This document shows positions 1-57,568 of a DNA stretch of 64,000 bases, one piece after another (positions within the stretch are counted from its first letter, which is position 1; each line of letters opens with the position of its first letter). The notes under the pieces were generated by a model. It was not told the origin of the DNA. It saw nothing but the letters and a program-made list of their open reading frames with translations, and searched no databases. Source of the stretch: Armatimonadota bacterium (GTDB lineage Bacteria; Armatimonadota; SYMT01); the NCBI GenBank assembly GCA_041690135.1, contig JAWLHY010000003.1:832001-896000 (forward strand), in the 5' to 3' direction. Both the position numbers and the translations under genes were made by a program.

Positions 1-2457
1 ACGTGCGTGGGGACAAGGCTGTGAAGATCATCAATGGGCGGGGTGGTGGCGGTTCACCCCCACGTGCGTGGGGACAAGCGGTCTATCTGGTTCACAAGGT
101 TAAGGAGTCACGGTTCACCCCCACGTGCGTGGGGACAAGCGGGGCGTCGCTCGGGATCACCACCGGGCCCGCGGTTCACCCCCACGTGCGTGGGGACAAG
201 AAAACTGCCGGGCGGTAAAGCTCCGAGCCCGCCGGTTCACCCCCACGTGCGTGGGGACAAGAGGGCGCGCTCCTGCTCCGGAGTGAGCCGACCCGGTTCA
301 CCCCCACGTGCGTGGGGACAAGCTCACCCAGCTCCTCAACCGGCCCAATCCCCACGGTTCACCCCCACGTGCGTGGGGACAAGTCAGGATCGGCGCCTTG
401 TGCTCGCCCTGGAACCGGTTCACCCCCACGTGCGTGGGGACAAGGACTCGTCCAGGTTCGGCACGATCCGGCTGAACGGTTCACCCCCACGTGCGTGGGG
501 ACAAGCCCCTACGCGAACGCCTGACCTTCGCCCGCGTCGGTTCACCCCCACGTGCGTGGGGACAAGCGCGCCGAGGAGCACCCCTCGCAGGCTCGCCACG
601 GTTCACCCCCACGTGCGTGGGGACAAGGAGGTGCTGGACGCGATGCGGGAGTATGCGGCCGGTTCACCCCCACGTGCGTGGGGACAAGGAGGACCTCCGC
701 CTCCGGAAGAACTGCGTCCACGGTTCACCCCCACGTGCGTGGGGACAAGTGCGGTAGTGGAGTGCGTGCGCCGGGGTGGGGCGGTTCACCCCCACGTGCG
801 TGGGGACAAGACCACCCCCCCTATTGTCCGACAATAGGGCCTCGGTTCACCCCCACGTGCGTGGGGACAAGTCATCTCGTTCCTTCAACAGCCGCTCGGA
901 GCGCGGTTCACCCCCACGTGCGTGGGGACAAGGAGGAACTTCTCCGCCTGGGAGACGGCCTCCGCGGTTCACCCCCACGTGCGTGGGGACAAGGGTCTCG
1001 GCCCCGTCTTCCGGGTCGCCGTCCCCGGTTCACCCCCACGTGCGTGGGGACAAGTGTGGTGAGTGGTTGCAATCGCGCGGATGGGGCGGTTCACCCCCAC
1101 GTGCGTGGGGACAAGTGCCGGTTGGCATCGGAGAGGGACCGTCCGTCCGGTTCACCCCCACGTGCGTGGGGACAAGAACCCGTCGCCGGGCTCGGTGTTG
1201 CCCAGGTCCGGTTCACCCCCACGTGCGTGGGGACAAGTTTGCACCAGCCGCCTTCCAGTCTTGGCCCAACGGTTCACCCCCACGTGCGTGGGGACAAGCC
1301 TCGTGTCCGTCCGGGCAGGCCTGGAATTATCGGTTCACCCCCACGTGCGTGGGGACAAGTAATAGTGCTTTCGGCAACGTCTCCGTTAATCAGGTTCACC
1401 CCCACGTGCGTGGGGACAAGTGCTCGAAGTTGAGGACCCCCAGGTCCACCGTCGGTTCACCCCCACGTGCGTGGGGACAAGCTATCTCCCGTTCAAAAGG
1501 AACGGCCGGCCCACGGTTCACCCCCACGTGCGTGGGGACAAGGTCCGGTATCAACGCCTGCGCGAGGACCCCACCGGTTCACCCCCACGTGCGTGGGGAC
1601 AAGATCCCATCCAGTGCTGTCTGCACCCGTCGGGCCGGTTCACCCCCACGTGCGTGGGGACAAGCCGGCGGCATTCCTCGGCGGCGAACGTTTCGGCGGT
1701 TCACCCCCACGTGCGTGGGGACAAGCGGCAAGACCGGCACATCAGTGCCTTACCGGTCGGTTCACCCCCACGTGCGTGGGGACAAGATCCTGAACGAAAA
1801 GGCGTTGCGGACCCGCGCCGGTTCACCCCCACGTGCGTGGGGACAAGCCGTTTGATGTTGCCCAGCAGGTTCACCCCGGCGGTTCACCCCCACGTGCGTG
1901 GGGACAAGTTGATCTTGCGGTCGCGGATCTCGGCTTCCCACGGTTCACCCCCACGTGCGTGGGGACAAGCCGTTTGATGTTGCCCAGCAGGTTCACCCCG
2001 GCGGTTCACCCCCACGTGCGTGGGGACAAGAACTGCCGCGCTTTAAGGATGATCTCCTTCTTCGGTTCACCCCCACGTGCGTGGGGACAAGAGTCGAAGA
2101 ACGGGGTCTTGGTGCCCTGCTCCCGGTTCACCCCCACGTGCGTGGGGACAAGAACTGCCGCGCTTTAAGGATGATCTCCTTCTTCGGTTCACCCCCACGT
2201 GCGTGGGGACAAGAGTCGAAGAACGGGGTCTTGGTGCCCTGCTCCCGGTTCACCCCCACGTGCGTGGGGACAAGAACTGCCGCGCTTTAAGGATGATCTC
2301 CTTCTTCGGTTCACCCCCACGTGCGTGGGGACAAGGATCAGCAGCGCCGCAATCGCCGTCACCTTCGCGGTTCACCCCCACGTGCGTGGGGACAAGCTCT
2401 GGGGCCTGAAGCGCAGGGGGCGCCGTGTCGGTTCACCCCCACGTGCGTGGGGACAAG
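1..2457 (-). CRISPR. CRISPR array 1 (type I-E): 40 full repeats plus 1 partial, 32-nt spacers; truncated by the window start
   Basis: 29-bp repeat CGGTTCACCCCCACGTGCGTGGGGACAAG (minus strand CTTGTCCCCACGCACGTGGGGGTGAACCG) recurs every 61 bp from 50 to 2429; I-E-type hairpin ending in AACCG; leader at 2458+. Confidence 0.99.
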
Positions 2458-2508
2458 AGCAAACTTAGCGTTTGCTGGAACTGGCCAATGGGCGCTGCGG
2501 TGTAGGAA
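2458..2508 (-). promoter_or_regulatory. Short leader of array 1 with palindrome GCAAAC-N5-GTTTGC
   Basis: AGCAAACTTAG abuts the first repeat of all three arrays (2458, 6908, 18156); only 51 nt separate the array from the cas2 stop. Confidence 0.75.
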
Positions 2509-2973
2509 TCAGGTATCGGTTTCTTCGCCTGCGGATCCGGTTCCTTCCGGGAGGGGCGGTCCCTCTTCGGGAACGGCTGTCGCCACCGGTGCGGGTGCTG
2601 AGTCGTCTTCAACCGCGCCCGTTCCCGGTGGCTTGTCGGGTTTTTTGGCGGTTTTCCAGGCCGGGTCGTAGAGGTAGGGGACGCGGACCAGCGACAGGCC
2701 CTCCAGGTCGAGGACCTCGCGGCTGGGGTCGCCGTACTTGCGGAAGGTGAAGCCCTGCTCGGTGCGGGCGCCGTACACCATCAGCGCGCCGGGGCGCTTG
2801 TCGGGATCCTGGACCTTCGTCTTCTCACAGCTCTCGCAGACCATGGTCCAGAGCCGGTCGCGCACGAGAGCGCTCATGCGGCCGACGAACACGCCGGTCC
2901 GCGGCTCGATCATCCACCGGGAGAGCTCGCCCCGGAGCTTCACCGGGACCTTTTCAAGGATCATCACTACCAT
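2509..2973 (-). CDS. cas2: Type I-E Cas2 with a low-complexity C-terminal extension
   Basis: MVVMILEKVPVKLRGELSRWMIEPRTGVFVG...RDRLW...EQGF...DLEGLSL is typical of I-E Cas2; lies downstream of cas1. Confidence 0.95.
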   Translation of the reverse strand: MVVMILEKVPVKLRGELSRWMIEPRTGVFVGRMSALVRDRLWTMVCESCEKTKVQDPDKRPGALMVYGARTEQGFTFRKYGDPSREVLDLEGLSLVRVPYLYDPAWKTAKKPDKPPGTGAVEDDSAPAPVATAVPEEGPPLPEGTGSAGEETDT

Positions 2974-3000
2974 CTCGTCACCGTACCCTTCCGAAGGGGA

Positions 3001-3221
3001 TTCACCGCAGAGGCGCAGAGAACGCGGAGCCCACGCTGAGGGGAAAAGAAAGGCGGAGGGGAGAACGGGGAGATAGCTGATAACCGGCCAGACAGTTCGG
3101 CTGAGACTTCGGGCGTCCAGCGCGGAAACTTGAAGCCGGAACAGGATCTTCTCTCATCCAACGGAACTAGCCATTTCTTCCCTCTGCGCACTCTCAGCGT
3201 CCTCAGCGTCTCTGCGGTGAA
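3001..3221. mobile_element. Palindromic MITE/REP-like insertion between cas1 and cas2
   Basis: Terminal inverted repeats TTCACCGCAGAGGCGC (3001) and GCGTCTCTGCGGTGAA (ending 3221); no convincing ORF; abuts the cas1 stop. Confidence 0.6.
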
Positions 3222-4172
3222 CTATTCTTCGCCGGACATGTCTTCGCTGTAGTTGAGGCCGCCGGCGACGCCCTGGGGAGTGCCGGGCTCCCAGAGGTAG
3301 CCGGGGGCGGCGGGGTCTACGTCGCCTTCGAAGAGGTTTTCGATCGGCTCGGGCTTGAGGCCGAGGACGCGGGGGAGGTCGTCGGCGAGGCGGTCGAGGA
3401 GGCGGTGCTCGCGGAAGAGATCGCGGCAGGCGAGGCGGACGGAACGCTCCAGGGGACGGGTGTCCTGGGCGACGGTCCGGAACGCTAGGGGGATGGTGAT
3501 CACCGTTTTGTAGAGGTCGGCGATGTCGTAGACGAAGGAGAGCTGCTTGCCGGTGTGGATAAAGCCGAGCGCCGGGCTGAGGCCCATGGAGAGGATGGCG
3601 GCGTGGCAGAGGCCGTAGAGGCAGGAGTTGGCCGCGGAGAGGGCGCGGTTGACGGGATCCGCGGCGTTCCAGCTTCCGCGGTCGTAGTGGCGGCCGTGCC
3701 AGGGAACGCCGGTTTCCTGCGAGGCGCGCGCGTAAGTGTCGCGGACGCGCCGCCCCTCCCAGCCGCGGAGCTGCTCCAGGTTGAGGTTAGGGTCCACCTC
3801 TTCCTGGAAGCGCATCTGGTACATCCGCCGGGCGACCTCCAGGCGGAGCGTGTCGTCGCTGACGAGCCGGGCCTGGTGGAGCAGCCAGGAGGCGCTGCGC
3901 GTGCCGCCGGTCCCGTGCGCGTAGAACCGCACGCCCTGTTCCCCGCACCAGACGACGAGGCAGTTGCTTTCGGCCAGCACGGCCATGGCGGCGTGGGTGA
4001 CGCGGGTGCCGGGGCCGAGCATGAGGATGGCCAGGGAAGCGGCGGGGACGCGCGTTTCGCCGACCTGGTCGTACAGGGCGATGGCGGAGTCTTTGCGGTC
4101 GACGCAGCAGTGCTCGACGTAGAGGTACGAGAGGCTGTCGCGGAGCTTGGGTAGGGTGCGAAGGTCGTCCAT
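3222..4172 (-). CDS. cas1: Type I-E Cas1 integrase
   Basis: LSYLYVEH, LMLGPGTRVTHAA, WCGEQGVRFYA, LRGWEGRRVR, NRALSAANSCLYG, ALGFIHTGKQLSFVYDIADLYK. Confidence 0.98.
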   Translation of the reverse strand: MDDLRTLPKLRDSLSYLYVEHCCVDRKDSAIALYDQVGETRVPAASLAILMLGPGTRVTHAAMAVLAESNCLVVWCGEQGVRFYAHGTGGTRSASWLLHQARLVSDDTLRLEVARRMYQMRFQEEVDPNLNLEQLRGWEGRRVRDTYARASQETGVPWHGRHYDRGSWNAADPVNRALSAANSCLYGLCHAAILSMGLSPALGFIHTGKQLSFVYDIADLYKTVITIPLAFRTVAQDTRPLERSVRLACRDLFREHRLLDRLADDLPRVLGLKPEPIENLFEGDVDPAAPGYLWEPGTPQGVAGGLNYSEDMSGEE

Positions 4173-4228
4173 TGTAGCTATCCCTTTACCGAACGGGTTG
4201 GCCCGCGGAATTCGCGGAAAGCGGGCCT

Positions 4229-4961
4229 TGGTTCACCCCCACGGTGCGTGGGGATTATTGCGTCCACTCATTCGTGGTGGCGAAGCTACCATGGTCCTAC
4301 TCATTGCCTGGAGGTGCTACCGTGGGGTCGCCCCCAGCCCTTGCCTTGGGCCGCCGCCCTCCCGCGGAATCAGCCTCCGCTCGGCCTTTCACGCTCGTCG
4401 CTCGCTAGCGGCCGGCTCCGGCGTGCTCACCAGGCCCTGTGTTCCGCGCCGCTGACGGGCGCTGCAACCATTCCGGGCGTAGACGGGCGGCGCCCCGGCG
4501 TCTTCGAGCTATCCCCCCGTCCGGGGAGATCACAAGGGCCCGGCTCTGCCGGGCTCTGGTTGCCGGGCACCCCCCACATGCGTGGGGACAAGGTATCCGG
4601 CCCGACCTTTCGCGACTCCCGGGTTGAGGAGTTGGCGAAGCTTCGTGGATGTTGTGCTGTTTCCCACTACCACTACCGTGGGGTCGCCCCCAGCCCTTGC
4701 ATTGGGCCGCCACCCTCCCGCGGAAGAAGCCTCCGCTCGGCCTTTCACGCTCGTCCCTCGCTAGCGGCCGGCTCCGGCGTGCAGCCCAAGACCTGGGCGC
4801 CGCGCTGCTGCCGGGCACTGGAACCAGTCGATGCGTGGACGGGCGGCGCCCCGGCGTCTTCGAGCTATCCCCCCGTCCGGGGAGATCACATAGGCCCGGC
4901 GCTGCCGGGCTTCGTTTTCCGTCCCCCCCACGTGCGTGGGGGGGACGGAAAACGAAGCCCG
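4229..4961 (-). repeat. Trailer extension of array 2: three degenerate CRISPR repeats separating two homologous ~300-330 nt units (356-bp period)
   Basis: Degenerate repeats at 4229-4258, 4563-4592 and ~4919-4953; homologous blocks 4317-4555 and 4673-4911. Confidence 0.85.
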
Positions 4962-4984
4962 CCCTCGGTCTCCAGGTCCGGCCG

Positions 4985-6907
4985 CGGTCCACCCCCACGT
5001 GCGTGGGGAAAACTCGACCCGCTTCGCGCCGGCCAGCTCGCTCGTCGGTCCACCCCCACGTGCGTGGGGAAAACGCCCGCCATGGCTACCGCATAGTAGG
5101 GAGCATCGGTCCACCCCCACGTGCGTGGGGAAAACGCGCACACGCTCTCCCGGAATGCCCGCGACAACGGTCCACCCCCACGTGCGTGGGGAAAACTGGG
5201 CAGCCTTATCGCCCCCTTTCTCTAGCTGCGGTCCACCCCCACGTGCGTGGGGAAAACTTCTGCTTCCTGCTGGCGCTTCCGCTTCTCGGCTGGTCCACCC
5301 CCACGTGCGTGGGGAAAACTTCGCCAGAGAGGCGGGCCTGGGCCTGACGGGCGGTCCACCCCCACGTGCGTGGGGAAAACGCGGCGACGTCGTTCTCTTC
5401 CTTCGCGGCCTTCGGTCCACCCCCACGTGTGTGGGGAAAACCCGGGGGGCTGGTCGGTGTAGACCTTCACCAGCGGTCCACCCCCACGTGCGTGGGGAAA
5501 ACACCACCTGTGGGCGCGGGGGACCGAACCGCGACGGTCCACCCCCACGTGCGTGGGGAAAACTAGGGCACCGTGGAGGCCGGCCACTCCTTCGCCGGTC
5601 CACCCCCACGTGCGTGGGGAAAACGTCAAACGGCGCAAGGCATTGTTTCGCCATGTAGGTCCACCCCCACGTGCGTGGGGAAAACGCCCGCCCCCGCGCT
5701 AGTGGACGGCGGGGCTGCGGTCCACCCCCACGTGCGTGGGGAAAACGTGGTCGGCGCTGGCGCGCAGCACCCGCCGGGCGGTCCACCCCCACGTGCGTGG
5801 GGAAAACGCTGCTTCCTCGATGGTCTCATACAGCCCCAGCGGTCCACCCCCACGTGCGTGGGGAAAACGGCGCGGGCGAGGGCGGCGCGGGCACGCTGTC
5901 CGGTCCACCCCCACGTGCGTGGGGAAAACAGCAACATAGGACATCAGTAGCTCCCCTGGAACGGTCCACCCCCACGTGCGTGGGGAAAACTGGACTGCTG
6001 AAAGAGGACGGGACGCTCTGGGCGGTCCACCCCCACGTGCGTGGGGAAAACGCCAGCCGCGCCCACCTCCCGCCAGCCCGCCGCCGGTCCACCCCCACGT
6101 GCGTGGGGAAAACTCGTCTACTACTACGCTCAGCACCCGCTCCAGCGGTCCACCCCCACGTGCGTGGGGAAAACATGAGCCCTGCCCTGTGGCGGGCGGC
6201 GGATACCGGTCCACCCCCACGTGCGTGGGGAAAACTCATGACCTCTTCCGGGTCCTGCGGCATGCCGCGGTCCACCCCCACGTGCGTGGGGAAAACATCC
6301 CCACTTTCCAAGGATGTGGAGTTTGGGGCGGTCCACCCCCACGTGCGTGGGGAAAACACATCCGCCTCACTGATCGTCCGTCCGCGGACCGGTCCACCCC
6401 CACGTGCGTGGGGAAAACGTGACGCTGGACGCGGATGCCTGGGAAGTGGACGGTCCACCCCCACGTGCGTGGGGAAAACACGATAGCCTCACCTTCGCTC
6501 ATATCCTCTTCCGGTCCACCCCCACGTGCGTGGGGAAAACGCCGGTAAGCCCGCGACAGCGGTTCATACTGGCCGGTCCACCCCCACGTGCGTGGGGAAA
6601 ACGTCCGGCCGAATTCAGCGCCCATCGGCATCTCCGGTCCACCCCCACGTGCGTGGGGAAAACAACCGCGCCCACACTTCCGCCGCCACCTTCGACGGTC
6701 CACCCCCACGTGCGTGGGGAAAACCGCCCAGCGCTAGATAGGCGGCCACGATGAGGCGGTCCACCCCCACGTGCGTGGGGAAAACCTGGTACCACTTGTC
6801 CGGGTTCTCGCTCTCCTCGGTCCACCCCCACGTGCGTGGGGAAAACTCCAGAACTGCCCCCGTGGTACTTAACGAACGCGGTCCACCCCCACGTGCGTGG
6901 GGAAAAC
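4985..6907 (-). CRISPR. CRISPR array 2 (type I-E, variant repeat), 32 repeats, between cas6e and cas1
   Basis: Repeat CGGTCCACCCCCACGTGCGTGGGGAAAAC (minus strand GTTTTCCCCACGCACGTGGGGGTGGACCG), 61-62 bp period; leader motif at 6908. Confidence 0.99.
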
Positions 6908-16894: not shown

Positions 16895-18155
16895 CAGTCT
16901 ACCCCCACGTGCGTGGGGACAAGGGCCACGCCCGCTTCCACCTTCACCACGTAGATCGGTTCACCCCCACGTGCGTGGGGACAAGGGCCACGCCCGCTTC
17001 CACCTTCACCACGTAGATCGGTTCACCCCCACGTGCGTGGGGACAACGCGATCTCATCCATCGTCGCTTCAGCCACCAGCGGTTCACCCCCACGTGCGTG
17101 GGGACAACAGGACCGGAACATCCAGCGTGCGGGCCAATACCGGTTCATCCCCACGTGCGTGGGGACAAGCACGCTTCCCAGGCGGCCTTCCGTTCCTCAA
17201 CCGGTTCACCCCCACGTGCGTGGGGACAAGCTACTCGGATAGCAACGTGACGCTGGGCCGCTTCGGTTCACCCCCACGTGCGTGGGGACAAGTCAGGCGA
17301 TCCTCAGGTGGGAGCCGCGCTCCACGGTTCACCCCCACGTGCGTGGGGACAAGTCCGGAATCCCACTCTTCCGGCGCCCCATGGTCCGGTTCACCCCCAC
17401 GTGCGTGGGGACAAGCTGTGCGACCACCTGCGCACCGCCGTATTCATCGGTTCACCCCCACGTGCGTGGGGACAAGAGTGGGTCCAACAGGCTCGTCTCC
17501 GCGCTCACCGGTTCACCCCCACGTGCGTGGGGACAAGCTGGCGCTCACGCTGGAGGTATAGGACATCAACTGGTTCACCCCCACGTGCGTGGGGACAAGG
17601 CGTAGGAGAGGGGCTGGAAGCCCGGCCACGTCTTGCCGGTTCACCCCCACGTGCGTGGGGACAAGGCAAACCGCCCGCGAACCGCCGCCGCCGTCCGCGG
17701 TTCACCCCCACGTGCGTGGGGACAAGATGACGTTCCTCGCGACGATCCATCAGGGACTCGGTTCACCCCCACGTGCGTGGGGACAAGCCCCCTGCCCTGC
17801 GGTTCGGGGTCGGTGTGGTACGGTTCACCCCCACGTGCGTGGGGACAAGCCTGCGGCCTGCAGAGCTGTTTTGGGCAGATACGGTTCACCCCCACGTGCG
17901 TGGGGACAAGGCGATGGCCTCCCGTGGGGAGTTGCAAAACTCCGGTTCACCCCCACGTGCGTGGGGACAAGGAGATGAGATCCGTAGAGAATACCGTGAC
18001 CTACGGTTCACCCCCACGTGCGTGGGGACAAGTTCTCGCCGTTCAGCGCGTATCCGCTCGCGTCCGGTTCACCCCCACGTGCGTGGGGACAAGGGTACCG
18101 GGTTGTCTTCCCTTCCCCCCGCTTTACGGTTCACCCCCACGTGCGTGGGGACAAG
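16895..18155 (-). CRISPR. CRISPR array 3 (same repeat as array 1), 21 repeats / 20 spacers
   Basis: CGGTTCACCCCCACGTGCGTGGGGACAAG repeats from 16895 (degenerate) to 18127; leader AGCAAACTTAGCGTTTGC at 18156. Confidence 0.99.
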
Positions 18156-44442: not shown

Positions 44443-44700
44443 TAAGGATCAAGATCAGGATAAGGATAAAGAATCCGGCTTCAGGACGGGTGCCCTGACC
44501 AGGGGGCGAGTGGATTAGGACTCGGAAGAGGATTAGGAGTTCCGCCGCAGGACGAGTTCCCTGACCAGGGGGCGGGATGGATTAGGACTACGATTAGGAA
44601 AAAGAGTCCCGGGTAAGGACGATTTCCCTGACCAGGGGGCGAGTGGATTAGGACCAGGATAAGGATTTGGGTAAGGTCGACTTCCCCGACCAGGGGGATG
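44443..44700. repeat. Four ~39-bp hairpin-containing direct repeats interleaved with GAT(T/A)AGG microrepeats
   Basis: Consensus AGGACGANTTCCCTGACCAGGGGGCGAGTGGATTAGGAC at 44483, 44549, 44616 and 44674 (partial). Confidence 0.75.
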
Positions 44701-49526: not shown

Positions 49527-49647
49527 CACCCGACGACCTCTGATTCCTCGTGAGACCTGGTAATCGCAACCCCTGACGCCACGACCGCCGACTACCATAT
49601 TGCTCCCGCAGATCGTCCGGGTCTGGCGAGCTACTGGGAGTTGGGAC

Positions 49648-50148
49648 ATGGAGGATTTCTTGCTTCCCGAAAGACGTGCGGAATTGTTGGCACGGCGCGC
49701 CGAACTGCAGGAACGGTTATGTCAGGAGGAGGCGGCTGCGAGCCTTCGGCGGAGTACTGCGCCGTTGGACGAAGCAGGTGTCGAATACGCGCTGACGGAC
49801 GAGGCGTCTGCCATATCCTGGATCCGTCACCACATCCCCATTACCACCTGGAACTGCGTCGACTGGGCAAAGGTTGATGGACATCAGTACGTTCGGGAGG
49901 ATGAAGTCCCGTCGGCAGCCGCGTGGTTGGAATCCATTGCCCACGAGATCGGGATAGAGGACCCGGAGATCATCGTCGTGTATGCGGCTGCCCACCGCCC
50001 GTGCCTGCGGATGCGGTTCGGCGAACTCGTCAGGCACGTGGAGCAAGTGATCGATTGGTCCTGGGACAACTGGATCTTCGACGAGAACGGCGACTGGCTC
50101 ATTGAGTACTTTCATCACGGAAGGTGGTGCTGGGGACGGGGCCGATGA
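49648..50148 (+). CDS. Putative CDI-type immunity protein
   Basis: PITTWNCVDW...DNWIFDENGDWLIEYFHHG resembles CdiI-like immunity proteins (recognised from memory). Confidence 0.5.
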   Translation: MEDFLLPERRAELLARRAELQERLCQEEAAASLRRSTAPLDEAGVEYALTDEASAISWIRHHIPITTWNCVDWAKVDGHQYVREDEVPSAAAWLESIAHEIGIEDPEIIVVYAAAHRPCLRMRFGELVRHVEQVIDWSWDNWIFDENGDWLIEYFHHGRWCWGRGR

Positions 50149-50705
50149 CCGCGCGCGACTACCAGGACTTGCTGGAGTTCAGTGACTGCTGGCTGCGGCT
50201 GGGGGTGTTGACCGAGGAGCAACTGTTCTCTCTCGGCCGCGAGTTCACCCGGAGTGAACCTCAGCCCACGGAGCATTTCCGGTACTACGTCTTCCGCGAG
50301 TATCTGGCGTCCCACCGGCCACTGCGTTCCGCGATGGCCGAGGCACTCTACGAGCTATGGAAGCAGGACCCGGATGGGTCCATGGGGCGAGCGATGATGT
50401 ACGATATCGTCGAATTGCCGTAATGCCCGGAGACGGTGCGCGAGTGGGCCGCAGGCTCCGGCGAGAAGCCCCTGGTTCGGTTGGTGTGGCGCAAGCGACT
50501 TTTAGGGCAGGTGGAAGTGGACCTGACTGCAGAAGTGTTTGAAGCATGTCTTGCCAGCGAGGATACAGCCGTGCAGCGGGAGTTGTTGGCACGAGCGGAG
50601 CTTTCCCGTGAACAGTTGGAGCAACTGGCGCGGGTGGGGATTACCCGCGCCGTGCGCAATCTCGCAGCGGCACGTATTCGAGCATACCGCTACTCCGCCG
50701 GATAG
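50145..50705 (+). pseudogene. Hypothetical helical protein split by an in-frame TAA
   Basis: ...YDIVELP*CPETVREW... continues in the same frame past the TAA at 50421-50423. Confidence 0.65.
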
Positions 50706-50729
50706 TTTCGGGTCGTGTGGATGAAGAAG

Positions 50730-51173
50730 ATGAGCCTTAAGAAATTGCTGCCGGTCCTGGCGCTGACTGTACTGGTACCCCCTATCATCGCCCATTCCCC
50801 TCGCCCGGTCCTGGCGGCGCCGGCAGCGACGGAATCCCGGAGCGATGCGATCCTGGGCCGCGCCTTCAAGGAGCGGATCAGCAACTTCCAGGTGGAGGGC
50901 AGCGGCGAGGTGACGAAACTCCTTCCGGACGACCAGAAGGGCAGCCGACACCAGCGCTTTATCCTCCGCCTGCGCTCCGGTCAGACGCTCCTGATTGCGC
51001 ACAACATCGACATTGCCCCACGCGTGGCGCCGCTGAAGGAGCGGGACCAGGTTCAGTTCTTTGGGGAATACGAGTGGAACGACAAGGGTGGCGTGATCCA
51101 CTGGACCCACCGGGACCCGGCCGGCCGCCATGTCGCCGGTTGGCTGAAACACAAGGGCCGAACCTACCAGTAG
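50730..51173 (+). CDS. DUF3465 domain exported protein
   Basis: QVEGSGEVTKLLPDDQKGSRHQRFIL, IAHNIDIAPR, GEYEWN..GGVIHWTHRDP. Confidence 0.9.
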   Translation: MSLKKLLPVLALTVLVPPIIAHSPRPVLAAPAATESRSDAILGRAFKERISNFQVEGSGEVTKLLPDDQKGSRHQRFILRLRSGQTLLIAHNIDIAPRVAPLKERDQVQFFGEYEWNDKGGVIHWTHRDPAGRHVAGWLKHKGRTYQ

Positions 51174-51303
51174 CGGTGTAACGGGTTCCGGCTATCGGGT
51201 GCCGGGCAGCGCACCCGGTACCGAGCCGGCGAGCCCGCCTGGGGCTCCGGAAAACGTAACTTGGGCTCCAGTACCGCCGTCAAAAGAGGTGGAGGCCCAT
51301 CTC

Positions 51304-52128
51304 ATGCCGCGCTGGAACCTGTTCGTCCTGGTGGTTGCCGCATCCCTCGCAAGTGGAACACCCCTGTTTGCGCAGACGCCGGACTCGCTCGACGAGCTTC
51401 GCAAACAGATCCAGGTCCTGCGAATCCAGAAGGACTTCACCCGTCAGGAGTTGGTGAAACTGCTGGCGACCACTCCGCAGAGCCCCTATTACTGCCCGAC
51501 CGGCGAACTCTGGCCCGCCTTCGAGGCCGGAGCGCAGCACCCGGAGCGGACTGTCCGGGTCCTGCTGGACCTCTACCGGGCTCAGAAGGACCGCTGGAAA
51601 CGGTACCATCTGTTGACGGCGCTAAGCCGCGAGCGGCATCCGGCCCTCCGTGAGTTCTGGCTCAAGCTCCTGGCCGACCCCAACTTGCCCGCGGATTACC
51701 GGTGGCCGGTGGTGAGCGGCGTAGGGAGGTGCGGCACTGATCGGGACGTGACGGATCTCGCGCGCCGCCTCGGAACACACAGCCAGTGGGATAACGCCAT
51801 CCTGTTCGTGCTAAGTGAGCGTCCGCAGCCGGGCGCCCGACCCGCCCTCCTGGCGCGCTTTCGGGATCGGAAGGCCACCGACGGTGTTCGCACGGGCGCC
51901 CTGCGGGTGCTGGTGCGGTTAGGGGGAGCGGAGGTGGCCGGATACCTCCGTGAGGCTGCCCGCGATGAGAGCGAGGCGGTGCGGAAGGCGGGTGTCACTC
52001 TCAAGAAACAACTCCGAAGCTTACAACAGCGTGTTGGCGATTTCCACTGTGCCGAACTTCGATCCAACCATCGCCATCGCCTCTTGGCCGGGTGTGCCGG
52101 TTCGGTTGTCCTGAAGACCAAAGCTTGA
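51304..52128 (+). CDS. Exported HEAT-repeat-like protein
   Basis: Signal peptide; VRTGALRVLVRLG and DESEAVRKA motifs. Confidence 0.6.
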   Translation: MPRWNLFVLVVAASLASGTPLFAQTPDSLDELRKQIQVLRIQKDFTRQELVKLLATTPQSPYYCPTGELWPAFEAGAQHPERTVRVLLDLYRAQKDRWKRYHLLTALSRERHPALREFWLKLLADPNLPADYRWPVVSGVGRCGTDRDVTDLARRLGTHSQWDNAILFVLSERPQPGARPALLARFRDRKATDGVRTGALRVLVRLGGAEVAGYLREAARDESEAVRKAGVTLKKQLRSLQQRVGDFHCAELRSNHRHRLLAGCAGSVVLKTKA

Positions 52129-52171
52129 TACACGAGGTAGGTCATCGTTTCTGCGGGTTGAGGTCGCGGCT

Positions 52172-52966
52172 ATGAATCGATTTGCAGGGGTTCGGGCCTC
52201 CCAGGGTCCTGGCAGGTTCCGACGGTGGTGGGGAGCCGGTCTTGCCGCCGCAACTGCCGCGGTGTGGATCGGGGTGGCCGGAATGCATCAGAGGCAGCGC
52301 AATGACCGCCTCGTCTGGGCCGTTCACCGCGACAACGCCGCAGAAGTATCGGACCTCCTCCGAAGCGGGGCGAGAGCGAATGCGAAATATCGGTTCGCCT
52401 TCGACCTGTCCCGCGGCAATCGATACAAGCCTACTGGTGAGAGTCGTGTGGTGCACTGGCGACCGCTGCTTGTCTTGGCCGCATGGCGAGGTCGGCCCGC
52501 TATCGTAGAAGCTCTTCTGGCACACGGAGCGGACCCCAATGCCGCAGATGAAGCAGGACGGTCCGCCCTGATGTATGCACTGATCTACGAGCACGCGGAG
52601 GTAGTCAAGCTACTACTTGACAGCGGTGCCGCGGTGAACGCGGCCGACATCGCAGGGAATACAGCAGTGACCTATGCCGCTATGGAAGACAATACCGACG
52701 CGCTTCGCCAGCTAGGTGCCCGTGGAGCGGAATTGGACGCCCGGGTGGAAAGTGGGCAAACGCCATTGATGCTGGCCGCCAGAGAGGGCAAGAGTGCAGC
52801 GGTACGAACCCTGATCGACTTGGGGGCCAACGTCGCGCTGAGTGATGGGTACGGTCGTACGGCCGGGGAACTGGCCCACCAAAAGGGACACTCGGACATT
52901 GCCGCAGTACTCAAACGCGCCGAAGCAAGGCGCCGCGTCCCGGTTTCTACCGATCCAGCGAGTTAA
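52172..52966 (+). CDS. Ankyrin repeat protein
   Basis: GADPNAADEAGRSALMYA, GNTAVTYAA, GQTPLMLAA, GRTA. Confidence 0.92.
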   Translation: MNRFAGVRASQGPGRFRRWWGAGLAAATAAVWIGVAGMHQRQRNDRLVWAVHRDNAAEVSDLLRSGARANAKYRFAFDLSRGNRYKPTGESRVVHWRPLLVLAAWRGRPAIVEALLAHGADPNAADEAGRSALMYALIYEHAEVVKLLLDSGAAVNAADIAGNTAVTYAAMEDNTDALRQLGARGAELDARVESGQTPLMLAAREGKSAAVRTLIDLGANVALSDGYGRTAGELAHQKGHSDIAAVLKRAEARRRVPVSTDPAS

Positions 52967-53088
52967 GCATGCCTCGTATCGCTCGCTATCGGGATCCAAG
53001 CCGAACCGTGGCAGTTCTGGCGCTGAATGGGACGCCTGAGTGTTAACGGATAGCTCCGAAGAATACCGGATGGGTATGGAGGTGAACG

Positions 53089-53424
53089 GTGGGTTCTGAT
53101 GGAGAGTGCCAGATTCTCGCATTCGTGGAAGTCGTGTGCCGGCGCCCCGCGATGTACACGCTCACTGGCACCTTTGGGGAAGCGGTCAGCTTCCTGGAAG
53201 GCTGGTACGGCGCCACTGCCCGGTATGGCAGCCATGCAGGTGCGGAACTTGCGGATCGGGAGTGGACCGGGTTTGGTTGCTGGCTCTCGGGAAAAATCGG
53301 GTCCACGGAGGACACCCGTGGAGCCATGCAAGCTCTGCGCCTCATGTGTCCCAACGATGACGCAGCATTCAGCAGAGCCCAGAGTCTGTACGAGGAATAC
53401 TTCAAGAGCCTCGAGAGGGACTGA
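53089..53424 (+). CDS. Small hypothetical protein (possible immunity family)
   Basis: RRPAMY...SFLEGW...FGCWL; GGAGG RBS upstream. Confidence 0.55.
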   Translation: MGSDGECQILAFVEVVCRRPAMYTLTGTFGEAVSFLEGWYGATARYGSHAGAELADREWTGFGCWLSGKIGSTEDTRGAMQALRLMCPNDDAAFSRAQSLYEEYFKSLERD

Positions 53425-53497
53425 CGGGCTCAATGGAGACTGGTTGGGTACGATTGACCGGTGATTCTGTTGGCAAGCTAAGGGCCTGGATTTACGG

Positions 53498-54358
53498 ATG
53501 CCTACCTTCCTCCTATCGACCTTGAGACTGCCGGCGGCGGAGGCCCTCGCCGGTGCTGCCCGCCGGCGAGGTTGGCGGGCCATCGCTCTCGACCGGGTGC
53601 CGGATCCCCAGGTAGAGGACTACGCCGTCTTCTACGGTGGGACGGACGTGGCCGACGCCGTGGCTGCCCGGTTCGACCTGGCGCTGGTGGAGCCGCCCTT
53701 TGACCTGCTCGTCCGGACACCCTATGCGCTCCGTCTCCGGGCCGTGGAGTACGCCCGCTACGATGAACTGGAGCCGTTCAACACGCCCACCTTTGTGAAA
53801 CCGGCGGACCCGCGCCGGAAAGCCTTCGACGCCGGCATCTACCGGGACGTTCGTGAGGCTCGCCTGGAGAGCGCGCTCGATCCGCGGATGCCGGTTCTGG
53901 TTGCGGAGCCGGTGGAGTGGTTGGAAGAGCACCGGTGCTTCATCCTGGACGGGGGAGTGGTCGCCTTCTCGCCCTACCTGCGGTTCGGGCGGCCCGTGTG
54001 GCGACCCTTCGACCGAGAAAGTGGACCGGTCCCGCTCCCCCCGCAGGTTCACGAGTTTTGCCGGAGACTGCTGTCGAGCCCGGAGCTTTCCCTGCCTCCC
54101 GCATTCGTGGTGGACATCGGCTACGTGGACGGGCGCGGTTGGGCGGTGGTGGAGTACAACCCCGCCTGGTGTTCCAGCCTCCTTGGGGCCGACCCGGCGG
54201 GAGCGCTTTCCGCTATCGCGCGGGCGAGTTGCAGTCGTGAGCGGCGCAGTGCCGGAGACCGGGGGTGGGTCGCCGCGCACCCTCCGGATCCGGGACGGGC
54301 AAAATGGCGGAGACAGGATCCTGTCTGGACCGGCGCCCATGCCGGCGCCATGACGTGA
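53498..54358 (+). CDS. ATP-grasp domain protein (DUF4343/R2K-like)
   Basis: FVKPAD..KAFDAGIY, EPVEWLEEHRCFILDG, VVDIG....GWAVVEYNPAWCS. Confidence 0.85.
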   Translation: MPTFLLSTLRLPAAEALAGAARRRGWRAIALDRVPDPQVEDYAVFYGGTDVADAVAARFDLALVEPPFDLLVRTPYALRLRAVEYARYDELEPFNTPTFVKPADPRRKAFDAGIYRDVREARLESALDPRMPVLVAEPVEWLEEHRCFILDGGVVAFSPYLRFGRPVWRPFDRESGPVPLPPQVHEFCRRLLSSPELSLPPAFVVDIGYVDGRGWAVVEYNPAWCSSLLGADPAGALSAIARASCSRERRSAGDRGWVAAHPPDPGRAKWRRQDPVWTGAHAGAMT

Positions 54359-54625
54359 GGCGGGAGATTCCATCGGCAATCGCCGTCTTCGAGTACGACT
54401 CTCTGGAAGACCGCGAGGCCGATATCGCGCGCATCCTTCGCCTGCGGGAAGAAGAGGGTGGGACCGGCGAGGGGATCCTGCTGAACTGGATCTTCATGCC
54501 GCCGGGGAGCGTGCGCTGTTGAAGATGGGAGGGGTTATCACAGCTAGCACCGTTTGCCAGGGTTCAGGCAACATAATCTGGGAAGCATTCAACGCCGCAC
54601 TGGCGCTCCACAAGACCGAGGCACC

Positions 54626-54847
54626 ATGTCCGAACAAGCGACACAGATCCTGGAGCGTGCGCTCCGACTACCCCCTACCGACCGAGCAGAGGTCGTCGAG
54701 AAACTGCTTTGCAGCCTGGACCGTCCCGATGCGCACCTCGACGAGACCTGGGCGGAGGAGGTAGAGGCTAGAATTTCTGCCTATGAAGCGGGTCAGATCC
54801 AGGCGTTTGAAGCGGATGATGTTTTCGCGGAGCTAGACCACCAGTGA
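54626..54847 (+). CDS. Addiction-module antitoxin (TIGR02574-like)
   Basis: ALRLPPTDRAEVVEKLLCSLD...WAEEVEARI..YEAG; overlaps the toxin start. Confidence 0.88.
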   Translation: MSEQATQILERALRLPPTDRAEVVEKLLCSLDRPDAHLDETWAEEVEARISAYEAGQIQAFEADDVFAELDHQ

Positions 54848-55138
54848 GAATTCGCTTCCTCGCCCCGGCTCGCGAGGAGTTGCGGCAGGGCATTCTCTAC
54901 TACAACGGCCAGCGTGCCGGCCTCGGCCGGGAGTTTCGGGACGCAGTTCGTGCCGGTGTCCAGCGCATCCGCGAACACCCGCTTGCCTGGCATCCCCTGA
55001 GCGAGCACTCGGCGGCATTTGCTGCATCGCTTTCCTTACGGCATCATCTACCAGATCCGCGAGGATGAAATCCTGATTGTTGCGGTTGCGCATCTTCACC
55101 GTGAGCCAGAGTATTGGCAAGAACGGACCCAAGAGTAG
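54844..55138 (+). pseudogene. RelE/ParE-family toxin with a frameshift near 55007
   Basis: MRIRFLAPAREEL...HPLAW, then RRHLLHRFPYGIIYQ...IVAVAHLHREPEYW in a different frame; consistent with a 2-nt loss in CAC-ACT. Confidence 0.85.
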
Positions 55139-56491: not shown

Positions 56492-56500
56492 GAAGGAATC

Positions 56501-56530
56501 AAAAAGCGCTCCGGACCGAGTCCGGAGCGC
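56501..56530 (-). terminator. Rho-independent terminator (also at 56955-56984 and 57409-57438)
   Basis: GCGCTCCGGAC-TCG-GTCCGGAGCGC followed by TTTTT on the minus strand. Confidence 0.85.
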
Positions 56531-56532
56531 GA

Positions 56533-56633
56533 TGCGGAAGGGGGGACTTGAACCCCCATGGATTTCTCCACACGCCCCTCAAACGCTTGCCCCCCCTCGG
56601 GGGGTAAACGTCTGCCAATTCCGCCACTTCCGC
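56533..56633 (-). pseudogene. tRNA-Leu-derived copy with a 19-nt hairpin insertion
   Basis: Matches the tRNA at 57441-57522 except for an insert GTTTACCCCCCGAGGGGGG and GCGCA>GCAAG at the anticodon stem (101 vs 82 nt). Confidence 0.9.
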
Positions 56634-56923
56634 TATTCTGGAAACTCGGTGCACCGGGTCCCGTGCTCCCGCATGTAGGCTTCCTTCTCGGCGCGGGTGT
56701 GGTGTTTGAACCAGCTCTCCAGCCGGCGCGCGGCCGGGGCATCGGGCTGGACCTCATACCAGAGGAGCGTCACCGGCAGGTGCATCCGGGTGATCGTCGG
56801 GCCACGCCCCGCCTGGTGCTCCCGAACCCGTTCTTCCAGCCGCTGCGTGATGCCGGTGTAGTAACGCCCGTCCGCCAGCAACAGCACGTAGACGTACCAC
56901 ACGGGGGAGGGGGCTTCGCTCAT
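56633..56923 (-). CDS. Small GIY-YIG nuclease (96 aa), copy 2
   Basis: WYVYVL..ADGRYYTGIT..LEERVREHQAG.G...T...P..L.WYE......ARRLE..FK. Confidence 0.92.
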   Translation of the reverse strand: MSEAPSPVWYVYVLLLADGRYYTGITQRLEERVREHQAGRGPTITRMHLPVTLLWYEVQPDAPAARRLESWFKHHTRAEKEAYMREHGTRCTEFPE

Positions 56924-56986
56924 CGGAACTCGAGATGAAGGGGTCGGTGGAATCAAAAAGCGCTCCGGACCGAGTCCGGAGCGCGA

Positions 56987-57087
56987 TGCGGAAGGGGGGA
57001 CTTGAACCCCCATGGATTTCTCCACACGCCCCTCAAACGCTTGCCCCCCCTCGGGGGGTAAACGTCTGCCAATTCCGCCACTTCCGC
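56987..57087 (-). pseudogene. tRNA-Leu-derived copy with a 19-nt hairpin insertion
   Basis: Same sequence as 56533-56633. Confidence 0.9.
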
Positions 57088-57377
57088 TATTCTGGAAACT
57101 CGGTGCACCGGGTCCCGTGCTCCCGCATGTAGGCTTCCTTCTCGGCGCGGGTGTGGTGTTTGAACCAGCTCTCCAGCCGGCGCGCGGCCGGGGCATCGGG
57201 CTGGACCTCATACCAGAGGAGCGTCACCGGCAGGTGCATCCGGGTGATCGTCGGGCCACGCCCCGCCTGGTGCTCCCGAACCCGTTCTTCCAGCCGCTGC
57301 GTGATGCCGGTGTAGTAACGCCCGTCCGCCAGCAACAGCACGTAGACGTACCACACGGGGGAGGGGGCTTCGCTCAT
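57087..57377 (-). CDS. Small GIY-YIG nuclease (96 aa), copy 1
   Basis: Same as 56633-56923; the stop codon overlaps G1 of the tRNA copy. Confidence 0.92.
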   Translation of the reverse strand: MSEAPSPVWYVYVLLLADGRYYTGITQRLEERVREHQAGRGPTITRMHLPVTLLWYEVQPDAPAARRLESWFKHHTRAEKEAYMREHGTRCTEFPE

Positions 57378-57440
57378 CGGAACTCGAGATGAAGGGGTCG
57401 GTGGAATCAAAAAGCGCTCCGGACCGAGTCCGGAGCGCGA

Positions 57441-57522
57441 TGCGGAAGGGGGGACTTGAACCCCCATGGATTTCTCCACACGCCCCTCAAACGTGCGCGT
57501 CTGCCAATTCCGCCACTTCCGC
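57441..57522 (-). tRNA. trnL: tRNA-Leu (anticodon GAG)
   Basis: GCGGAAGTGGCGGAATTGGCAGACGCGCACGTTTGAGGGGCGTGTGGAGAAATCCATGGGGGTTCAAGTCCCCCCTTCCGCA: acceptor stem, long variable arm, T-loop; CCA not encoded. Confidence 0.95.
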
Positions 57523-57539
57523 AGGGGGTTGGTGAAGTG

Positions 57540-57568
57540 ATTGTAGCAGGCCGCCCTGCCCTCGTCAA
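57540..57568 (-). promoter_or_regulatory. Sigma70-type promoter of tRNA-Leu
   Basis: TTGACG-N17-TACAAT, 17 nt upstream of the tRNA. Confidence 0.8.

Follow-up and report, generated by a model that had tools for sequence, protein, structure and literature searches.

A stretch of 64,000 nucleotides from the genome of an Armatimonadota bacterium (lineage SYMT01, assembly GCA_041690135.1, contig JAWLHY010000003.1, forward-strand positions 832,001 to 896,000; hereafter the window, in whose coordinates the features of the locus are given) carries, on the minus strand at 56495-57568, an array of 454-bp units in which the gene of a small GIY-YIG nuclease is followed by a hairpin-interrupted tRNA copy (tRNA*), all behind an intact tRNA-Leu(GAG) gene. 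The array is real, conserved, and apparently undescribed in print. We lean, with modest confidence, towards reading it as a minimal, integrase-free selfish cassette docked at a tRNA gene and made of a UPF0213/Slx1-type GIY-YIG gene and a tagged hairpin lodged in a spare tRNA copy. Part of this reading is directly observed: 1) the anatomy of the locus; 2) the intact-looking active site of the nuclease; 3) purifying selection on its gene; 4) the conservation of tRNA* with its insert in an independent relative; 5) the recurrence of the arrangement at many tRNA isotypes; and 6) the dispersal of the hairpin.

Read 5' to 3' along the minus strand, the locus opens with the predicted promoter of the tRNA gene (57540..57568), a sigma-70-like sequence with an extended -10 and 10 of 12 consensus matches (0.1 such sequences expected in shuffles). 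The intact tRNA-Leu(GAG) gene (57441..57522, CCA not encoded) and an intrinsic terminator with an 11-bp stem and a T tract (57403..57438) make up the host segment that was duplicated, which runs exactly from G1 of the tRNA to six bases past the T tract. Each 454-bp unit then comprises a 25-bp leader, a 291-bp open reading frame (ORF), and a full copy of the tRNA closed by a terminator. In the first unit these are the leader (57378..57402), the nuclease gene (57087..57377; 96 amino acids, UPF0213/Slx1 type, Pfam GIY-YIG E-value 1.3e-12), tRNA* (56987..57087) with its 19-nt hairpin (57044..57062; a TTTA tag, a 6-bp stem, and a 3-nt loop) and three substitutions directly after it (57042-57040), and the second terminator (56949..56984). 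The second unit is identical letter for letter, with its leader at 56924-56948, the gene at 56633..56923, tRNA* at 56533..56633, the hairpin at 56590..56608, and the third terminator, where the array ends, at 56495..56530. Tandem Repeats Finder describes 56495-57493 as 2.2 copies of a period of 454 with 100% match. The nuclease gene runs into tRNA*, the G of its TAG stop codon being G1. Together with the Rfam, Pfam, promoter, and terminator calls, these results confirm the order of the parts, the period, the identity of the units, and the stop-codon overlap that an earlier note had read from the letters. The same note saw neither integrase nor transposase, and this is borne out: of the seven Phage_integrase matches in the genome none lies on contig C3, and a Pfam scan of 21 neighbouring ORFs in the window, the only check made for serine recombinases, returned no integrase and no transposase. 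The leader has no Shine-Dalgarno-like motif and no promoter, and expression of the nuclease gene would therefore depend on read-through of the terminator.

The tRNA copy is indeed full-length, as claimed, since its Rfam match spans the whole tRNA model; over that length both copies score 33.6 bits and the intact gene 50.2. The 19-nt insert was also correctly seen, but not its position: it separates G24 from C25 and so falls within the final pair of the D stem, not between the D arm and the anticodon stem. The bases after it are changed from GCA to AAG (tRNA positions 26-28), and the insert and these three substitutions together form a 34-nt hairpin (z -4.5) that sequesters the 5' strand of the anticodon stem. 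In the predicted fold the D and anticodon arms are lost, and the acceptor, variable, and T arms still form. Because its D and anticodon arms cannot fold, tRNA* would be unable to work as a tRNA. The suggestion that it serves as an RNA partner finds no support, as it lies behind a terminator, has no promoter of its own, and cannot form those two arms. ARAGORN run with the -i option calls tRNA* an intron-containing tRNA-Ser; we rejected this annotation, given that the option over-calls (162 genes in the genome, against 72 without it) and that the insert breaks the D stem.

The nuclease consists of a single GIY-YIG domain, and its predicted structure is confident (predicted local distance difference test score 91). 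By sequence and by fold its best solved matches are the UPF0213 proteins 1zg2 (sequence E-value 1.5e-13) and 1ywl, with HIGLE and Slx1 next, which places it, as far as homology can tell, among the UPF0213/Slx1-like GIY-YIG proteins. The catalytic set is present (Y12, Y22, G24, R32, H36, and E69), and the C-terminal Asn motif is absent. The roles of these residues in GIY-YIG catalysis are well established. They are also described in the available text of PMC1564403. The active site thus looks intact. In a quick and poorly resolved tree of 93 columns, the protein (P0001) falls in a small clade of 10 (support 98), in which Y12, Y22, G24, and E69 do not vary and R32 and H36 are fully or almost fully conserved. 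Members of a sister clade (support 87) lie behind genes for tRNA-Leu(GAG) and tRNA-Val. Scoring 12 candidates per genome, we found no clade member in the 400 other genomes of the phylum (best E-value 1.4e-20, against 5e-51); scans of viral sequences gave 45 loci, none a clade member, and no match to the 19-mer pattern described below, and all tblastn matches of the nuclease in plasmids were below 60% identity.

A relative of the unit shows that it has a history. Among the sequencing runs available none contains the exact stretch (best share 0.08), and no RNA run is listed for it; run X1, from an independent soil sample, contains a relative at ~88-91% identity. A first X1 contig aligns without gaps over 57010-57203, spanning the end of the gene and tRNA* with an insert of the same length. 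It shows 18 differences, where 17.4 are expected from the gene part alone, and the five listed are all in the gene; we infer that tRNA* with its insert is unchanged in the relative, for which the chance at that divergence, over 23 nt, is ~1e-4. A second contig covers the 3' part of the tRNA, the terminator, the leader, and the start of the gene; 18 of its 25 coding differences are at third positions (~33% third-position divergence), and in the terminator stem one change is compensated by another. On a third contig the same glyoxalase gene lies upstream, in synteny. With such a relative the unit is not an artefact, and the predominance of third-position differences shows the nuclease gene to be under purifying selection; the unit is thus old and conserved, its broken tRNA apparently retained throughout. 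At either end the first and second contigs share 30 bases, so that together they form a loop of 463 nt, and depth is 25.9 on the shared part and 17.6-19 elsewhere. Loop and depth fit one more unit, or at least part of one, following tRNA* in that organism, with a circle or a simplification of the assembly graph as alternatives. Finally, the N-terminal start of P0004, a homolog at 50% identity, is the translated 3' end of tRNA-Leu(GAG), which indicates that one more organism uses this docking site.

The association with tRNA genes extends to more distant homologs, which we gathered from genomes, metagenomes, and viral contigs (179 loci, 162 distinct domains). A tRNA or transfer-messenger RNA (tmRNA) gene lies within 350 bp of 31 of the 162 distinct homologs, against a background proximity of 0.6% in this genome, and is co-oriented in 31/31. 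The docked isotypes include Trp, Leu, Pro, Val, Ser, Lys, Thr, and Met, besides tmRNA. In 13 of the 31, a partial, hairpin-broken tRNA copy lies on the far side, although for one of these (L103) the label is confounded by a second, real tRNA-Ser. Such partial copies are nearly always hairpin-broken, and their type follows the position of the intact gene: a 5' part from position 1 if it lies downstream, a 3' part if it lies upstream. The copy starts at position 1 in five loci with the intact gene downstream, and in other loci only the last 17-30 bases of the tRNA are duplicated. The earlier note had proposed looking for an association of homologs with tRNA copies and hairpins, and it exists. 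This, together with the conservation of the unit in an independent relative, supports the idea of a small, integrase-free selfish element with a stand-alone GIY-YIG nuclease tied to tRNA genes. Related small GIY-YIG genes were also seen directly behind tmRNA (L156, L157, L158, L162, L038, L216), several of them sharing the hairpin leader of the tRNA-docked ones.

The insert in tRNA* is a member of a dispersed micro-insertion family with ~190 sites genome-wide. A BLAST search of tRNA* against its own genome returned many relatives of the insert. Defined as TTTA followed by a 6-bp stem and a 3-nt loop, with at least 5 of 6 pairs required by that definition, the 19-mer has 194 copies, of which ~10-20 would arise by chance; its rate is 187 per 10,000 TTTA tags, against 7-21 for 12 control tags and 6.8 for GTAG. 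When exactly 19 bases are cut out, 143 of 247 loosely defined candidates yield a sequence that the genome also contains at another place; with other lengths from 14 to 26, 7-44 do. The 19-mer is therefore a precise insertion of fixed length whose empty sites are present elsewhere. Its hosts are unrelated repeats of at least a dozen types, including REP-like hairpins, which it enters one base into the 3' arm, and arrays of 7-8-mers. Stem pairs have changed on both sides, from C-G to G-C in 16 copies and from C-G to A-T in 19, and 176 of the 194, tRNA* included, have an A at position -3 relative to the point of insertion. The variant in tRNA* is absent from the rest of the genome. A strict form of the pattern has 129 matches here, one each in nine of the 400 other genomes of the phylum, and none in 391. 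The 19-mer and the nuclease clade are thus both confined to this genome among 401, a single co-occurrence that is not a statistic. The gene of nuclease type nearest to any 19-mer is the GIY-YIG gene of the array, at 76 bp.

Some attempts around the 19-mer failed. An earlier hairpin definition gave 17 matches on contig C3 against 13 in a Markov control; it missed stems with G-T pairs and was replaced. The proposal that the 19-mer flanks genes for DUF559, four-helix-bundle, or GxxExxY proteins was rejected, the nearest distances being at least 980 bp. A second, unrelated small GIY-YIG-like ORF with a weak Pfam match (L005, G000:C2:551806-551910) has a 19-mer ~490 bp downstream. The genome also encodes nine Y1 transposases; a 19-mer lies 198 bp from one of these genes, inserted in its flanking repeat, and for the others the nearest is more than 7 kb away or the contig has none. 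One Y1 gene (L006, G000:C11:209659-210000) stands between REP-like palindromes, and one flanking repeat carries a 19-mer; another (L008, G000:C2:54557-54895) is similarly placed, with the related repeat empty. Four 19-mers (G000:C3:404639, C3:400282, C7:408846, and C4:179343) sit in one further repeat type, which may resemble an IS200/IS605-type (insertion sequence) end.

Cassette hairpins are dispersed in other genomes as well. In five genomes with tRNA-docked cassettes the hairpin of the cassette occurs in 4-21 copies, against 0-1 in the control, in the loops of other repeats; TTTA precedes 5 of 25 distinct sites and is the commonest tag. Among the 400 genomes, a strong homolog of the nuclease is found in 11 of the 27 that are rich in such hairpins and in 26 of the other 373 (odds ratio 9, p 4e-6), a figure in which kin are not independent and the cassettes' own hairpins are counted. 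The stronger proposition that the hairpin in tRNA* always belongs to a dispersed family is false for two genomes (G384 and G079) and ambiguous for a third (G055). The tagged hairpin family other than the 19-mer was seen in 120 copies in G069, 74 in G032, and 32 in G009, the last of which has no match to the nuclease query.

How might such a cassette work? The nuclease, made at low level through terminator read-through, would act as a structure-selective nickase of the Slx1 lineage and nick structured single-stranded or branched DNA, such as the arms of a tRNA gene. Recombinational repair would then copy the cassette in and duplicate part or all of the tRNA gene; because repair duplicates the gene, one intact tRNA would always survive. 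The tagged hairpin could be the element on which the nuclease acts in cis, or it could spoil the site and mark the allele as occupied. Once between direct repeats (25 + 91 bp), the cassette could give rise to a second unit by unequal crossing-over, or by looping out as a circle of 454 bp that then re-enters. If the crossover fell 3' of the hairpin, the intact tRNA would end up upstream, as at this locus; if it fell 5' of the hairpin, the broken copy would be upstream, as at tRNA-Trp and tRNA-Val loci elsewhere, so that the side of the crossover would explain both gene orders.

A bolder proposal, which we put forward tentatively, makes the nuclease the autonomous partner of the tagged micro-hairpins: it would nick structured single-stranded DNA (ssDNA) three bases after an A, the 19-nt tag-plus-hairpin would be pasted into unrelated repeats, and tRNA* would be the home copy. 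The fact that, among 401 genomes, clade and 19-mer are both found in this one and in no other, their proximity of 76 bp, the dispersed hairpins in five genomes, often behind the same TTTA tag, and the enrichment of strong homologs in hairpin-rich genomes (11/27 against 26/373) make such a role in mobilisation possible, though we would sooner doubt it than rely on it.

Several observations weigh against a selfish cassette or narrow its generality. First, genomic context is available for 1 of the 10 clade members only, to which P0004 adds its peptide and X1 its relative. Second, a unit that has stayed at one locus while third positions diverged by ~33% looks more like a resident than like an element in active spread. 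Third, we found no true empty allele; the six same-family tRNA-Leu(GAG) loci that lack the gene are not syntenic. Fourth, a full-length copy with its terminator is unlike the 17 other mapped loci, whose copies are partial or degenerate. Fifth, 131 of the 162 homologs have no tRNA nearby, and many of them are flanked by other palindromes; in the first homolog searches, a scan of genome contigs with the single protein gave seven distant loci, none of them with a tRNA nearby, and in a further set a tRNA was lacking at 23 of 25. The homolog sets were, moreover, chosen by similarity, and their kin are not independent. Sixth, 16 of the 27 hairpin-rich genomes have no strong nuclease match, and in G384 and G079 the hairpin that breaks the tRNA copy is found at a single site. 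Lastly, in this same genome a tRNA-Pro(GGG) gene and its terminator are duplicated almost fully 3.5 kb downstream (L213:1164-1290 and L213:4690-4860; G000:C1:1083163 and 1086689) with no nuclease gene between the copies. A double hairpin interrupts the downstream copy beyond its D loop, no GIY-YIG or integrase match was seen in the intervening cargo, and a variant of the 19-mer lies just upstream of the intact gene.

The nuclease gene could instead be a passenger in an ordinary tRNA-anchored duplication. Another enzyme, for instance a Y1/RAYT transposase, would spread the 19-mer and have struck a dispensable tRNA copy, and RecA or slippage would have made the second unit. We regard this passive history as unlikely, yet as the rival to be taken most seriously. 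The insertion of the 19-mer into a dozen or more unrelated types of repeat agrees with it, as do the fit of the tRNA site to the general target, the nine Y1 genes with one 19-mer in the flanking repeat of one of them, the single-site hairpins, the hairpin-rich genomes without a strong nuclease match, and the broken tRNA-Pro copy that has no nuclease. It accounts poorly for a tRNA* and insert that are apparently unchanged in X1, and for the recurrence of the nuclease with a broken tRNA copy at many isotypes. Y1 genes are also common (6 of 14 control genomes), yet the 19-mer and the nuclease clade are found only here among 401.

A domesticated module is somewhat less probable still. The host would keep the nuclease for its dispersed hairpins, as with SsnA in Neisseria, so as to filter ssDNA that enters the cell or to tune recombination; alternatively, the RNA of tRNA* would be a decoy against tRNA-cutting enzymes. 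In either case the locus would no longer move. Purifying selection, the syntenic glyoxalase gene, and the ~190 hairpins agree with such a function, and there are precedents in the accessible texts: domestication of this kind has been proposed for Ssn (PMC11893778), and tRNA amplification in phage T6 counters a tRNA-cutting defence (PMC13096335). The module is, however, absent from all seven other genomes of the class that were searched, its unit carries neither a promoter nor a ribosome-binding site, tRNA* is unable to take up a tRNA fold, and identical tandem copies point to recent instability. We find it very improbable that the duplication was templated by RNA, with a 5'-matured pre-tRNA and its terminator trailer reverse-transcribed or used for repair at a nuclease nick: the boundaries of the duplicated segment, from the exact G1 to six bases past the T tract, and the five loci whose copy also begins at position 1 are suggestive, but no reverse transcriptase is linked, the loci that copy only the last 17-30 bases have no need of RNA, and selection for a complete tRNA explains the G1 boundary equally well. 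That the second unit is an assembly artefact, which would touch the amplification only, deserves as little credence: the units are 100% identical and no available run contains the exact stretch, but the assembly is highly contiguous (25 contigs, the largest of 1.6 Mb) and the X1 loop and depth are as expected if there too tRNA* is followed by another unit or at least part of one.

The selfish cassette that we favour has two close functional parallels, and would work like both as a member of neither. According to its main text, PMC11893778 (Chenal et al. 2025) presents Ssn with its NTS/SRM hairpins as an IS-like layout and proposed driver of repeat expansion, in which SsnA (cd10448) cuts ssDNA at its cognate hairpin. 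As here, a ~95-amino-acid single-domain GIY-YIG gene lies by a tagged hairpin, which for Ssn occurs in hundreds of copies. Unlike Ssn, the protein is of UPF0213 type and the hairpin is inside a tRNA copy, and in our tree the clade of P0001 (support 98) stands apart from the NP-motif clade (support 99), taken as Ssn-type from its flanking palindromes. The SRM motif has no match within ~500 bp of the unit, although the same motif matched only 1 of 9 presumed Ssn-type loci. The words 'tRNA' and 'tandem' are absent from the main text of PMC11893778. The second parallel is the phage nuclease SegB, whose GIY-YIG gene also lies beside tRNA genes and is co-amplified with them; the accessible texts report that it recognises a T-arm motif of tRNA in DNA (PMC2330249) and that a 718-bp unit of tRNA and segB cannot be amplified in tandem unless SegB is active (PMC13096335). 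SegB is, however, a double-strand cutter that amplifies functional tRNA, and its type is modular, with extra DNA-binding domains, and belongs to the homing-endonuclease/UvrC lineage (a split drawn in PMC1564403, as far as its available text goes). By contrast, the protein described here is a chromosomal, one-domain member of the Slx1 lineage with 96 amino acids, and its gene has been repeated together with a tRNA copy that is disabled and bears the tagged hairpin.

By sequence type, fold, stand-alone minimal domain, and lack of the C-terminal Asn, the nuclease resembles the prokaryotic Slx1-like UPF0213/YhbQ/YazA proteins. The available texts of PMC1564403 and PMC7017083 describe these as presumed repair enzymes and mention no docking at tRNA genes, duplication, or hairpin partner. 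The hairpin itself recalls REP/RAYT elements, which also combine a four-base tag and a short hairpin, and some of whose families (GTAG-15, GTAG-23, and CGTC-1) are inserted in other small palindromes (PMC3733652, available text). Its tag differs, TTTA never occurring in that text, where the tags are GTAG or CGTC, and the enzyme adjoining it is a GIY-YIG protein and not an HUH tyrosine transposase. Such cassettes also depart from integrative islands.

Those islands insert at a tRNA gene, which a direct repeat restores. Here no integrase is linked, the repeat is a whole tRNA with its terminator and is hairpin-interrupted, and a single gene of 291 bp is all the cargo. Cyanobacterial small dispersed repeats (SDRs), reportedly described by Elhai et al. 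in 2008, are said to be ~20-nt modules precisely inserted in other sequences, their mobiliser being unknown. To our knowledge no linked nuclease has been reported for them. From what is said of SDRs, they and the 19-mer are alike in size and in the precision of insertion, and differ in sequence and phylum. SDRs are cited in PMC4390886, in the text available. Searches of the open-access literature, judged by titles and the openings of abstracts, showed no description of bacterial tRNA-docked cassettes with a single-domain GIY-YIG nuclease; the supplements of the Ssn and SegB papers, which fall outside those searches, could list tRNA-adjacent cases.

The nuclease is a candidate for the enzyme that moves the 19-nt insert, one of the smallest mobile pieces of DNA seen. 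Were the mobiliser role true, it would define a class of mobile DNA with neither transposase nor integrase and put a name to the missing mobiliser of SDR-like elements. UPF0213/YhbQ proteins are widespread and uncharacterised, and repair is the role usually assigned to them; if one branch resides in tRNA genes, duplicates them, and has hairpin partners, these proteins would be recast as selfish elements, and a common source of mis-annotated pseudo-tRNAs would be explained. The locus is an unusually clean test case, with an enzyme of 96 amino acids, an empty (intact tRNA) and a filled (tRNA*) allele side by side, and ~190 sites of natural insertion that follow a simple rule for the target, so that the question of what moves insertion elements of ~20 nt becomes directly testable. 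The toolkit of ssDNA-specific nucleases could also extend beyond Ssn.

Other features of the genome and of the window were seen in passing. A 26-nt 5' copy of tRNA-Ala(CGC) with a hairpin, just upstream of the intact gene and without a nuclease gene (L214, G000:C1:168103-168252), looks like the scar of a similar cassette. A dense array of ~ten short tRNA-like genes (G000:C4:52375-53600) includes a second call of tRNA-Leu(GAG), of 76 nt only. Downstream of the tRNA, 49600-55068 of the window is a patchwork of accessory genes, including CdiI-like immunity, DUF3465, HEAT, ankyrin, and R2K ATP-grasp genes, an addiction-module antitoxin, and then a short ORF without a Pfam match. Further away, a 66-67-bp unit is repeated in about three tandem copies at 44457-44665, and CRISPR arrays occupy 111-6846 and 16901-18032, with a period of 61 bp and a repeat that comes in two slightly differing forms.

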